A stretch of 64,000 nt of DNA from a virus (IMGVR_UViG_3300042887_005798); one strand, 5' to 3'. Counted from the stretch's first letter, positions 35,013 through 37,472 are shown. Numbers and translations: made by a program. Notes: generated by a model from the sequence alone, not told the origin.

Positions 35013-35249
35013 TCAAATCACCCATATTTGAGAATTAGCTCTTATTCTTTCTTCGGCTTCAATTTTAAGTTTTTCTTCTTCTGCCTGTTTTTCAAGTCTT
35101 TTTCTCTCTTCTGCTTCTTCTGCTTCTTCTCGAATAAATGTTATAAAGAAACACCACACGAGTAATGCAAGCATAAAGAGAGCAAAACAAAAGCAAAACT
35201 TAGAAAAGAAGTCCATCTCCGAAAATACAGAATACAATTCCGAAATCAT
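35013..35249 (-). CDS. tandem-paralog small membrane protein P1 (ends ..SQIWVI)
   Basis: TM hairpin, a charged EEAEE/KR coiled coil, and the C-terminal QIWV motif. Confidence 0.5.
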   Translation of the reverse strand: MISELYSVFSEMDFFSKFCFCFALFMLALLVWCFFITFIREEAEEAEERKRLEKQAEEEKLKIEAEERIRANSQIWVI

Positions 35250-35638
35250 TCATTCACCCAAATCTGAGATTGTGTTCTAGTTCTTTCTGCTTCAGCTTCT
35301 TCTGCCTTTATTCTAAGACTTTGTTGTTCTTCTTGAAGTTGAGCAATCTGGCGAGCTTTCTGTTGAGCTTTCTCTCCTTCTATTTTAATTCTTTTTTCCA
35401 TGAACTGGCTCAACAAAATCTTTAGGTGAAGCTTTAATTGCTTGTTGTGCAAGTTTAGTTTTTCGGCTTCTATTTCAAGTCTTTTTCTCTCTTCCTCTGC
35501 TCTCATTTTAATTGTTTTTTTCTTTTCTTCTTCTTCAATGTTTTCCATTAATGAAAAGTGATTTAGAAAACCTACTAAAATAATAAAAAATAAAGAAAAA
35601 GAAATAGGTACAAAAATATAGCAAATAGTTTCATTCAT
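35246..35638 (-). CDS. tandem-paralog small membrane protein P2 (ends ..SQIWVNE)
   Basis: Start placed at the ATG that overlaps the P3 stop (ATGA); the track start is a TTG. Confidence 0.5.
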   Translation of the reverse strand: MNETICYIFVPISFSLFFIILVGFLNHFSLMENIEEEEKKKTIKMRAEEERKRLEIEAEKLNLHNKQLKLHLKILLSQFMEKRIKIEGEKAQQKARQIAQLQEEQQSLRIKAEEAEAERTRTQSQIWVNE

Positions 35639-35946
35639 TCGATCACCCAAATCTGAGAATTAGCTTTTTCTTTGTCTGCTTTAGCTTGAAGTTCAGCTTC
35701 CTTTTTCTCCTGTTCAGCTTGAAATTCTTTATCTATCTTTTGATTGTGTGTGCGCACATACTTTCGAATTAAAAATATCACACCAAAAAAAAGTACGATA
35801 GGAATTATTCCTGTAATAATCCCATAATTTTCTAATCCAGGTATATTAGAACAGCATGGAATAGCAAACACAAGTATAACACCAAAGTCAATCCACATAC
35901 TTTCCATATATCTTTTATCTTCTTTTGTATACTTTCCGTCTTTCAT
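35635..35946 (-). CDS. tandem-paralog small membrane protein P3 (ends ..SQIWVIE)
   Basis: Same architecture; ATGA overlap with P4. Confidence 0.5.
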   Translation of the reverse strand: MKDGKYTKEDKRYMESMWIDFGVILVFAIPCCSNIPGLENYGIITGIIPIVLFFGVIFLIRKYVRTHNQKIDKEFQAEQEKKEAELQAKADKEKANSQIWVIE

Positions 35947-36269
35947 TCATTCACCCAAATCTGAAGTTCAGCCCTGTTTCTTTCTTCAGCTTCCAGAAGC
36001 AGAGCCTGCTGTCTAGCTTTTTCTTCTTCATCTATTTTGTCATTTCTTGAATGCAAAAAGTCTGAGATGCCATCGTTCCATATAAAACCTACAAAACATT
36101 TGTACGATATCAAGAACCATATAAATGCAATTAGTGCTACGTTCCAGTTATTGCACCAAAAGAACCAACGTACAGAGATGCAAAAGCTAATCAAAATAGA
36201 TAGCAAAAGGAAAATAAAAAGAAAGAGAATTAAAGCAGCTTCTGTCTTTTCAGTTAACTTTCTTTTCAT
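35943..36269 (-). CDS. tandem-paralog small membrane protein P4 (ends ..LQIWVNE)
   Basis: Start at the ATG overlapping the P5 stop. Confidence 0.5.
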   Translation of the reverse strand: MKRKLTEKTEAALILFLFIFLLLSILISFCISVRWFFWCNNWNVALIAFIWFLISYKCFVGFIWNDGISDFLHSRNDKIDEEEKARQQALLLEAEERNRAELQIWVNE

Positions 36270-36589
36270 TCGCTCACCCAAATCTGAGATTCAATTCTAG
36301 TTCTTTCTGCTTCAGCTTGAGCTTTAGCTTGAAGTTGAGCTTTTTCTTCTTCATCAATTTTGCCATTTCGTTTACGCAAAAAGTTTAGTGAGCCATCTAT
36401 ATTATAAAATGCACTACCTATAAGCGATATCAAGAAATATATAAATGCAATTCCTGTTATGTACGGAGAAACGTCCCCAGAGGCATACCATAGAAAGATG
36501 ACAAAGCTAATCGGACAAGATAGAAAAAGAAAGCAAAACAAAACGGTTGCTAAAGTATCAATCACACTATCTTTAATCTTTCTTCTCAT
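36266..36589 (-). CDS. tandem-paralog small membrane protein P5 (ends ..SQIWVSE)
   Basis: Start at the ATG overlapping the P6 stop. Confidence 0.5.
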   Translation of the reverse strand: MRRKIKDSVIDTLATVLFCFLFLSCPISFVIFLWYASGDVSPYITGIAFIYFLISLIGSAFYNIDGSLNFLRKRNGKIDEEEKAQLQAKAQAEAERTRIESQIWVSE

Positions 36590-36930
36590 CCATTCACCCA
36601 AATCTGAAGTTCAGCCCTGTTTCTTTCTTCGGCTTCTAGAAGCAGAGCCTGCTGTCTAGCTTTTTCTTCTTCATCTATTTTGTCATTTCTTTTATGCAAA
36701 AATTTTAAGAAGCCTTTTGTATCATTAACTTTAAAACATATAAGCGATATCAAGAACCATATAAATGCAATTATTCCTACGTCTCTTGTAAAAGGTCCTA
36801 TATCTCTTAGCAAAAAAGAAGGGAGAGAAAATATTGAAATGAAGAAACTAATCAGCATAGATAGCGCTAAAAAACAATGGCAAACGCATTCTAAATTTTC
36901 AATCACACTATCTTTAATCTTTCTTCTCAT
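36586..36930 (-). CDS. tandem-paralog small membrane protein P6 (ends ..LQIWVNG)
   Basis: Start at MRRKIKDSV, aligned with P5. Confidence 0.45.
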   Translation of the reverse strand: MRRKIKDSVIENLECVCHCFLALSMLISFFISIFSLPSFLLRDIGPFTRDVGIIAFIWFLISLICFKVNDTKGFLKFLHKRNDKIDEEEKARQQALLLEAEERNRAELQIWVNG

Positions 36931-36950
36931 CCATTCACCCAAATTAAAAA

Positions 36951-37472
36951 TTAAACCAGCACTCTTCCGATAGGCACACAAAACTTCAGCGTGGGAATTT
37001 TTAAATCTCTGTATGCCTGAACATTGTCTTCGCTATCGTCCACAGCATACACAATCTCATAATTTTCCATAATTTTCAGAGCTTCTTTTTTCTTATATGA
37101 AGCATGGTCAGATTGTGTGTAGAAGTGGTAATTATCAAAATCTTCTGGTTGCATAATCAAAACACAATCTTCTTTCCAAATCCCTTCATCTTTAAGCCAT
37201 TGCAAAGTGGGTTTATATCCGCCATGCCCTCTAGCTGTGATAAAAAACACACAATCTGGTTTGTAAAATGTGCATAGCATTTCAAGTAAATCAACACCCA
37301 AATCAATCACTTCATCGCCTCTGCAATCAGCATTGTACCATTCCACTGATTTTATCCAAGCTTTTGCATCTCTGCGAATAAAGGCATCAAGATTCAATCT
37401 TTTAAACCTTGATGAGCTATTTACAACCACTCCATCCAGGTCCATAACTATTGCTTTTAAATTATTTTTCAT
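36951..37472 (-). CDS. HAD-superfamily phosphatase (PNK-phosphatase/nucleotidase-like)
   Basis: N-terminal DxDGV motif (MDLDGVV) and later HAD motifs (FITARG..., AVDDSEDN). Confidence 0.6.
   Translation of the reverse strand: MKNNLKAIVMDLDGVVVNSSSRFKRLNLDAFIRRDAKAWIKSVEWYNADCRGDEVIDLGVDLLEMLCTFYKPDCVFFITARGHGGYKPTLQWLKDEGIWKEDCVLIMQPEDFDNYHFYTQSDHASYKKKEALKIMENYEIVYAVDDSEDNVQAYRDLKIPTLKFCVPIGRVLV

Follow-up and report, generated by a model that had tools for sequence, protein, structure and literature searches.

A variable array of gene cassettes with a common C-terminal tail and junction in a probable huge-phage genome

How do neighbouring genes whose proteins are otherwise largely unrelated come to end in the same few codons? 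The question is raised by a locus in a 64,000-nucleotide (nt) stretch of viral DNA, IMGVR_UViG_3300042887_005798 (hereafter the window, meaning the whole stretch at its full length), in which six minus-strand genes lie head-to-tail at 35013-36930. These genes, which we call cassettes P1 to P6, fill the whole interval between a HAD phosphatase gene and a gene for a membrane protein of 324 amino acids (aa), and their proteins all end in a charged helix followed by Gln-Ile-Trp-Val (QIWV). A preliminary description had taken them for six paralogous, translationally coupled membrane-protein genes that arose by recent serial duplication. We addressed the question by dissecting the array, by comparing it with related metagenomic loci and by estimating divergence within and around it. 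We consider it likely that P1-P6 are one version of a hypervariable array of cassettes shuffled by recombination in a fixed slot between the HAD and 324-aa genes, the shared tail and junction serving both as translational coupler and as homology for recombination. The anatomy of the array, its conservation pattern, its variability and its breakpoints were observed directly, and the six cassettes, all on the minus strand, are the following.

36586-36930 (minus strand), P1: 114 aa, body family A, basic N terminus, two transmembrane (TM) segments, charged helix, ends QIWVNG.
36266-36589 (minus strand), P2: 107 aa, body family A, two TM segments, ends QIWVSE, with the alternative tail KAQLQAKAQAEAERTRIESQIWVSE.
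35943-36269 (minus strand), P3: 108 aa, body family A, two TM segments, ends QIWVNE.
35635-35946 (minus strand), P4: 103 aa, separate body family (MKDGKYT type), two TM segments, ends QIWVIE.
35246-35638 (minus strand), P5: 130 aa, one N-terminal TM segment, then a charged helix of ~95 aa, ends QIWVNE.
35013-35249 (minus strand), P6: 78 aa, one TM segment and a charged helix, ends QIWVI; the last cassette.

The open reading frame (ORF) coordinates bear out six head-to-tail genes on the minus strand. When the six proteins were aligned, the only invariant columns were the initiator Met, one Ser, and the C-terminal Q-I-W-V. With the tails removed, the bodies of P1, P2, and P3 were homologous (BLASTP E values of 1e-9 to 1e-15), and for these three the description as paralogs stands; the bodies of P4, P5, and P6 gave no significant match to P1-P3 or to each other (BLASTP E ≥0.015 in a six-sequence database) and have just the C-terminal tail in common with P1-P3. 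Likewise, a TM hairpin had been assigned to every protein, which holds for P1-P4, whereas hydropathy gives P5 and P6 a single TM segment. The E/K/R-rich C-terminal helix is present in all six proteins and is followed in each by QIWV, the ends being QIWVNG, QIWVSE, QIWVNE, QIWVIE, QIWVNE, and QIWVI. Basic residues lie on either side of the TM segments, which suggests a cytoplasmic position for the charged tail. An AlphaFold2 model of P1, built on a 23-sequence alignment of the P1-P3 type (predicted local distance difference test score, pLDDT, of 74), has helices at residues 7-40 and 46-69, which form the hairpin, and a continuous E/K/R-rich helix at 73-113 (pLDDT 67-86 over this block) between the anchor and the C terminus. 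No regular heptad pattern was seen by eye in the charged tail. ORFs on the plus strand antisense to the array (e.g., 36037-36300 and 36680-36973) were rejected as genes; they are the F/L/S-rich mirror of the purine-rich tails.

The cassettes meet at a short repeated sequence, which also precedes the first cassette and closes the last. The leader, the junctions, and the terminal spacer, all read on the minus strand, are these.

36928-36950 (minus strand), P1 leader: non-coding, from the HAD stop (36951-36953) to the P1 ATG (36928-36930), with a full junction copy, ATTTGGGTGAATGGATG, at 36928-36944.
36587-36603 (minus strand), P1/P2 junction: ATTTGGGTGAATGGATG, where the W-V-N-G codons, the GGGTGA resembling a Shine-Dalgarno (SD) element, and the ATGA overlap coincide.
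36267-36283 (minus strand), P2/P3 junction: ATTTGGGTGAGCGAATG.
35944-35960 (minus strand), P3/P4 junction: ATTTGGGTGAATGAATG.
35636-35652 (minus strand), P4/P5 junction: ATTTGGGTGATCGAATG.
35247-35263 (minus strand), P5/P6 junction: ATTTGGGTGAATGAATG.
34971-35030 (minus strand), terminal junction and spacer: CAAATATGGGTGATTTGA, a mini-ORF, CGTATAAAT (34981-34989), AGGTGA-GCAT, then the ATG of the 324-aa gene.

The 17-mer ATTTGGGTGAATGAATG, with up to three mismatches allowed, occurs six times in the window, all at the array, versus 0.58 copies expected. At all five internal junctions of the window array the stop codon shares 4 nt with the next start (ATGA), and GGGTGA stands 4 nt ahead of each ATG within the upstream gene, the arrangement of a coupled operon; overlaps of -4 or -1 nt were found at nearly all junctions across 35 loci. 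The overlaps behind the earlier claim of translational coupling are thus present throughout, and coupling itself is what this arrangement predicts. Four of the genes had indeed been over-extended from TTG codons in the ORF track; the TTG sits within the junction, and an in-frame TGA in AATGAATGA junctions blocks a TTG start, so that ATG is the conserved start. The copy ahead of P1 is identical over its 17 nt to the P1/P2 junction and is located in the 20-nt spacer past the HAD stop. It is therefore the P1 leader, and the idea that a degenerate seventh junction survives inside the end of the HAD gene must be abandoned: the copy is exact, non-coding, and outside that gene. The P6 terminal junction carries the synonymous variants CAA and ATA, and the terminal spacer behind it is kept in related loci (designated here by L and a number) with an ATG or GTG start, while L005-like loci have a second spacer type without the mini-ORF.

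That mini-ORF (34975-35010, minus strand; 11 codons, MQFFNFKRINR) starts 5 nt past the P6 stop and ends within AGGTGA. Its ATG or GTG start is retained in many relatives and it is absent from L005-type spacers; because it overlaps the CGTATAAAT motif, its conservation may stem from that motif. A reading of the leader and terminal spacers as relay mini-ORFs was dropped, as the ATG is gone in L017 and no mini-ORF occurs in terminal spacers of the L005 type. Six junctions were folded, and no stable or conserved RNA structure was found in them (minimum free energies of -5.5 to -12 kcal/mol, z scores of -1.5 to +1.7); these scores and the lack of an inverted repeat led us to reject the junction as a structured RNA or an attC-like site. 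The leader junction of L013 (1909-1929, compared with L005 5103-5141) has collapsed to CAGATTT|AGGTAAC, which is consistent with a deletion between two AGATTT repeats, a micro-homology event.

We then asked what the junction codons are conserved for, using a survey of 66 distinct 50-mers. All 66 junctions use GTG for Val, versus 25% GTG genome-wide, the base after this codon is A in 65 of 66, and the Gln codon is CAG in 51 of 61 versus 14% genome-wide, where CAA makes up 86%. The motif GGGTGA-N4-ATG is retained in 12 of the 13 distinct non-coding leaders after HAD. GGUGA is complementary to UCACC in the 3' tail of 16S rRNA, and TGGGTGA can therefore be read as an SD-like element that would restart ribosomes at the ATGA overlap. 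The persistence of GGGTGA-N4-ATG in copies that encode no protein makes a role in ribosome binding and reinitiation probable. The Q, I, and W codons show a different pattern. Coding junctions vary at them only synonymously (CAA, ATA), whereas non-coding leaders show CAG>TTA and TGG>CGG, changes that would mean Q>L and W>R and that never occur in coding copies. Because the changes are only synonymous where the sequence is coding, they point to peptide-level selection on QIW. The final cassette of each array retains QIWV, and full QIWV tails still precede cassettes encoding leucine-rich-repeat (LRR) proteins that have their own downstream start (L013). The E/K-rich helix is missing at the 3' end of HAD, which also lies ahead of a coupled start; the helix is therefore a feature of the protein and not an RNA requirement. 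Both layers of constraint, RNA-level and peptide-level, appear real.

Variability was assessed in 30 related metagenomic loci; a scan anchored by HAD gave 20 loci, and more came from contigs with the P3 homologues or exact copies of cassette proteins. All are short-read metagenome assemblies. They have the gene order ClpP - HAD - array - 324-aa gene - 455-497-aa gene - DnaK in common, and the HAD protein is 77-94% identical across 20 loci. Between these anchors the array slot holds two to nine genes from at least 14 body families in 12-13 distinct complete architectures, and all ORFs between HAD and the 324-aa gene in related loci end in QIWV and tile that interval end to end. Copy number, one of the checks proposed in the preliminary description, therefore varies widely (two to nine cassettes). 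The locus is not conserved as a single copy; it is a hot spot at which genes are gained, lost, and diversified. A search with P3 returned 28 metagenomic homologues, all ending QIW(V)xx, with variable TM bodies and a nearly invariant stretch of 40 residues at the end that comes in two alternative versions. Many of the relatives' cassettes encode LRR proteins of 170-317 aa with the same charged helix and SQIWV end, a type that does not occur in the window; one of them (L005:5141-6004) matches Pfam LRR_14 at 58.8 bits (cut-off 40), as well as LRR_8 and LRR_1.

The same cassettes recur in other orders. The array of L011 runs in the order of P1, P6, and P4 types, unlike that of the window. Its P1 ortholog is 94% identical at the amino acid level, with a ratio of nonsynonymous to synonymous substitution rates (dN/dS) of 0.27; its third gene is the P4 ortholog (88%, dN/dS 0.40) and its second gene the P6 ortholog (77%, dN/dS 0.91). 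The P5 body family occurs also in L008_4 and L024_3. The exact P3 protein is present in 63 collection blocks, and a 95% identical copy stands first in the arrays of L030-L037. In the more distant L018, where HAD is 79% identical, there is neither an array nor a 324-aa gene. The six-gene order of the window is unchanged in at least 12 contigs, so the array is stable within its own strain. With bodies kept across samples and ortholog dN/dS values of 0.27-0.91, the cassettes are, by these sequence criteria, real genes.

Divergence estimates by the Nei-Gojobori method indicate that the parts of a cassette have different histories. Among the family A bodies of P1-P3, the synonymous divergence (dS) is 0.57-0.70 (P1 versus P3, 0.59), while the last 40 codons of P1 and P3 differ by a dS of 0.09, with 129 nt at 93% identity, and the first 12 codons of P1 and P2 by a dS of 0. 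The dN/dS values, which had also been suggested as a check, are 0.6-0.96 for the paralog bodies and 0.27-0.91 for the L011 orthologs. In the comparison of the window with L011, flanking genes have a dS of 0.12-0.36, and dN/dS is 0.04-0.31 in most flanking-gene comparisons. Bodies and tails also come apart between genomes. The pairs P0015/P0023 and P0012/P0026 have the same body with a different tail, switching at KIDEEEKA, and tail types cross body families, AEERIRT being found in three and QEEMIRF on LRR as well as TM cassettes. Between relatives, the breakpoints lie in the tail or the junction: L008 follows L001 collinearly at 98% identity as far as the junction that closes an LRR cassette, and beyond it the two diverge; L010 equals L001 plus one cassette, bounded by a direct repeat of ~70 nt of tail and junction; and L034, which comes from the same study as L035 and is 98-100% identical to it, contains a duplicated cassette with a 54-nt junction overlap. 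A scan confined to the neighbouring genes (ClpP, HAD, LAGLIDADG, 324-aa, 470-aa, and DnaK genes) revealed no tyrosine or serine recombinase. With no junction structure and no recombinase nearby, the simplest mechanism is homologous recombination between copies of the repeated tail and junction, and we infer that it does the shuffling.

Taken together, the proposed mechanism would run as follows. Each cassette consists of a variable N-terminal body and a shared, probably cytoplasmic C-terminal module, a single E/K/R-rich helix that ends in (S/L)QIWV. The body is a hairpin of two TM segments, an anchor with one TM segment, or, in relatives, a cytoplasmic LRR domain. The closing codons, TGG GTG Ann Grr TGA, supply the next cassette with its SD-like GGGTGA, a 4-nt spacer, and its ATG; because these end codons hold the signals for the next cassette, terminating ribosomes could restart on it. 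Tail and junction together place 20-130 nt of near-identical DNA at each boundary, which would serve as homology for recombination that would duplicate, delete, permute, and replace cassettes and exchange tails between bodies. The shared tail may in addition touch a common cytoplasmic partner.

Serial duplication, the origin first proposed, would make the array the product of recent tandem duplication and divergence of one gene for a small membrane protein with a role in exclusion, immunity, or host takeover. P1-P3 are true paralogs, the array encodes small, membrane-anchored proteins whose copy number varies, and the duplicated cassette of L034, at 95-100% identity in the comparison with L035, is a fresh event of this kind within one population, so recent duplication does occur at the locus. 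However, the dS of 0.57-0.70 among P1-P3 exceeds the divergence of the flanks between the window and L011, which speaks against a recent origin of these copies. As an origin for the whole array, serial duplication does not hold: the P4, P5, and P6 bodies are unrelated to P1-P3 and recur elsewhere in other positions and orders, cytoplasmic LRR proteins with the same tail occupy the same slot, and P1, P3, P4, P5, and P6 group with cassettes of other genomes and not with their neighbours. The proteins also have no homology to known exclusion, immunity, lysis, or defence families, and we regard this explanation as improbable. An integron-type system, in which the junction would be the site of a dedicated recombinase or endonuclease such as the product of the adjacent LAGLIDADG gene, fits the promoterless cassettes and the conserved boundary, and the LAGLIDADG gene does adjoin HAD in the window. 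Yet that gene is missing from most loci with variable arrays, the scanned neighbours include no tyrosine or serine recombinase, the junctions have no inverted repeat or stable structure, and the breakpoints are spread over 50-130 nt of shared tail with no fixed position; such a system is very improbable here.

A further question is what the QIWV peptide is for. It might have no function of its own and merely translate the ribosome-binding, reinitiation, and recombination sequence, with the charged helix a tolerated by-product. GTG in 66 of 66 and CAG in 51 of 61 junctions, both counter to the codon bias of the genome, are what this predicts, as are the GGGTGA-N4-ATG of 12 of 13 non-coding leaders and the variable residues after V (NE, SE, IE, NG, IG, NV, I, V), which follow from the spacer and the ATGA. 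It does not account for Q, I, and W codons that vary only synonymously where coding while leaders tolerate CAG>TTA and TGG>CGG, for QIWV in last cassettes with nothing cassette-like behind them, or for full QIWV tails ahead of LRR cassettes with their own start (L013), and the absence of the E/K helix from the HAD 3' end makes the helix dispensable at the RNA level. We hold this explanation to be possible but rather unlikely. The opposite proposal, that the charged helix and SQIWV form a dedicated address tag, docking motif, or degron with ClpP, DnaK, or the 324-aa protein as candidate readers, draws on the occurrence of one tail on at least 14 unrelated bodies, membrane and soluble, on its probably cytoplasmic location in all of them by topology, on the Q, I, W pattern, which resembles peptide-level constraint, and on the conserved synteny ClpP-HAD-array-324aa...DnaK, the 324-aa gene being missing from the sole relative without an array (L018). 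Against this, no known motif matches the tail, the residues after V and thus the free C terminus vary, part of the conservation has an RNA-level explanation, and the co-occurrence of the 324-aa gene comes down to a single negative case. A dedicated tag therefore seems to us doubtful, and marginally more doubtful is the fuller version in which the tail is the portable address tag of a plug-and-play effector system and the tag DNA doubles as coupler and recombination handle.

Several points also weigh against the shuffled-cassette reading that we prefer. The junction survey was ascertained partly by regular expression, and the division between peptide and RNA constraint rests on 13 distinct leaders and two types of synonymous variant. 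Only ~7 of 51 other window genes have an SD-like sequence, so it is uncertain that the host ribosome uses GGGTGA as an SD element. The dN/dS of 0.91 for P6 and of 0.6-0.96 for the paralog bodies fits relaxed constraint rather than adaptive function. Finally, repeats of 50-130 nt could yield some chimeric architectures in assembly, a concern offset by the recurrence of the window order in at least 12 contigs.

The function of the cassette proteins was sought by homology. Searches of the six proteins with Pfam, PHROGs, and PADLOC gave sub-threshold noise only, and a fold search of the P1 model in the PDB returned generic helical bundles (E ≥0.34). An exhaustive HMMER search of 1.84 billion representatives matched 14 proteins, all of the same clade; the family profile had no match in 185,579 species genomes, and a profile of the tail alone recovered only fragments of the same family. 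The HAD anchor found nothing in IMG/VR, and 19 single matches to the junction pattern there were set aside as chance, the upstream frames being stop-filled or unrelated. In the literature, nothing relevant was found on QIWV or on tandem TM/LRR arrays in huge phages. Judged by these searches, the cassette proteins are an orphan family without a homologue outside the clade. With no Pfam, PHROG, PADLOC, or fold link to superinfection-exclusion, immunity, holin, or defence families, the functional label in the preliminary description was a guess. We infer that the proteins are dispensable, host-directed accessory factors; rapid turnover is typical of host-interaction genes, and they are therefore candidates for new anti-defence or exclusion functions.

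Known systems resemble the array in part. In T4-type phages, hyperplastic regions are shuffled by way of mobile regulatory cassettes called PeSLs (Arbiol et al. 2010, PMC2839356; Comeau et al. 2014, PMC4122927), each an early promoter of sigma-70-like type with a terminator stem-loop (PMC2839356). Both systems have a fixed slot between conserved genes that holds small, mostly orphan, non-essential genes, and both have a short motif at each gene boundary in which the breakpoints of indels, replacements, and duplications fall (here L008/L001, L010/L001, L034/L035, and window/L011). The repeat described here differs in being a translational junction and tail segment embedded in coding sequence, with no promoter or terminator; neither is enriched, the RNAs are unstructured, and the array genes appear co-transcribed. 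The source genome is unrelated to T4-type phages, with no nucleotide match.

Termination-reinitiation at ATGA, with the SD element inside the end of the upstream gene, is common in phage and bacterial operons. The 4-nt overlap and the SD-like element within the upstream gene end are the same here, but one 17-20-nt junction is reused at all boundaries, which forces a common C-terminal peptide on unrelated genes. The internal proteins of T4, which are encoded at a polymorphic locus, carry an N-terminal capsid-targeting sequence that is cleaved and brings soluble proteins into the head. They too are unrelated proteins of a hypervariable locus with a common short terminal peptide and adjacent regulatory DNA; the module here is C-terminal, however, and mostly on membrane proteins, which cannot be packaged. 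Integron arrays likewise line up unrelated promoterless cassettes behind a common expression signal and vary in their number and order, whereas the present array has no integrase in the neighbourhood scanned, no attC-type hairpins, and boundaries inside coding sequence. T4 Imm and Sp are small inner-membrane proteins of superinfection exclusion and immunity, and such proteins share with the cassettes their size, their location, and their origin in accessory variable regions; there is no sequence, profile, or fold similarity to them, and the cassette system here also takes in soluble LRR proteins.

The two anchor genes, both on the minus strand, frame the slot as follows.

36951-37472 (minus strand), upstream anchor: HAD / PNK-phosphatase-like gene, 173 aa, with CGTATAGTT directly ahead of its ATG.
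33996-34970 (minus strand), downstream anchor: 324-aa gene, charged N-terminal helix and C-terminal TM hairpin, an orphan family that co-occurs with the array.

The AlphaFold2 model of the 324-aa protein has a pLDDT of 64, too low for a fold search, and its gene is preceded by AGGTGA-N4-ATG in the non-coding spacer. As to transcription, the motif CGTATAWWW occurs 26 times in the window versus 2.6 expected (10-fold), 6-13 nt ahead of most ATGs, and looks like an element-specific promoter that would give near-leaderless mRNAs. It is found, for example, at 1878-1886, 19745-19753, 34981-34989, 39255-39263, and 61528-61536. Sigma-70-like promoters and terminators were not enriched in a scan of the window. 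There is no CGTATAWWW within the array and one just 5' of the 324-aa gene; with none in the array and CGTATAGTT ahead of HAD, the array therefore looks like the distal, promoterless end of an operon whose start is at HAD or upstream of it, and it appears to be transcribed as a single unit with no internal promoter-like motif.

Mobile and mosaic features surround the slot. A free-standing LAGLIDADG endonuclease gene (37475-38596, minus strand) separates ClpP from HAD in the window and also in L028; it is absent in L001-L009 and L030-L037, where the two genes share 4 nt. Such presence/absence polymorphism is typical of homing endonucleases. A 470-aa orphan gene (32518-33930, minus strand) has a dS of 0.011 to its L011 copy versus ~0.35 for the adjacent 324-aa and HAD genes, which indicates a fine-scale recombination mosaic outside the array as well.

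The window is AT-rich (~32% GC) with coding mostly on one strand, and it contains genes for DnaK, a tyrosyl-tRNA synthetase, three TnpB-type transposases, a Y-family polymerase, a thymidylate-synthase-like protein, a short adenylosuccinate-synthetase-like protein, a transfer-messenger RNA (tmRNA), and ClpP. Contigs of up to 356,595 bp hold exact copies of window proteins. A megablast search of the locus against 50,697 phage records found no match, and the 64-kb window contains no structural genes. The source is likely an uncultured huge phage, among phage-like genomes of at least 356 kb; we say likely because the window holds no structural gene.

Some of this gene content is of interest in its own right. 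DnaK (28423-30303, plus strand) is full-length and shares ~53% identity with its counterparts in uncultured phages of 630-735 kb and in bacteria. The genome encodes its own tyrosyl-tRNA synthetase (13178-14374, minus strand) and ClpP (38671-39246, minus strand). The tmRNA (42102-42486, minus strand) is complete (Rfam RF00023, 108 bits), with the tag peptide AKKNRRNGFGSAQAGFAMVA according to ARAGORN, and is unusual cargo for a phage-like genome. The adenylosuccinate-synthetase-like protein (319 aa; 51564-52523, minus strand) matches the PHROG '2-aminooxy adenylosuccinate synthetase' at 3.5e-62; its phage matches include Vibrio and Arthrobacter phages and a 735-kb uncultured phage, and its gene adjoins the thymidylate-synthase-like gene (50709-51545, minus strand). 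This pair may belong to a PurZ-type base-modification pathway. The three TnpB / IS605-OrfB-type genes (9674-11080, minus strand; 21428-22591, plus strand; 45629-46846, minus strand) match PHROG 506 with E values down to 1e-135, and their nearest genomic relatives do not exceed 60% identity and are taxonomically scattered. For the one TnpB copy used to infer a host, the best matches were spread over archaea, Patescibacteria, and others and gave no host signal. Two further minus-strand genes, at 11709-12584 and 55386-56417, encode a secretin-like protein (PHROG 'protein IV of M13', 3e-16) and a protein whose N terminus resembles a pilin, and they hint at a secretion or pilus-related module.

The locus suggests how a very large uncultured phage may express fast-changing accessory genes without a promoter for each. 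A single sequence of 20 nt would be at once the end of a protein, a site at which ribosomes restart, and a handle for recombination, which would extend the concept of the "mobile regulatory cassettes" of T4-type phages to a junction embedded in coding sequence and would account for a common C-terminal peptide on unrelated proteins. For annotation this is a warning, as a conserved terminal peptide may mirror overlapping translation signals and not peptide function alone. Were the tail an address tag after all, membrane anchors and LRR binders would be linked to one conserved cytoplasmic partner, and the phages would be exchanging effectors.

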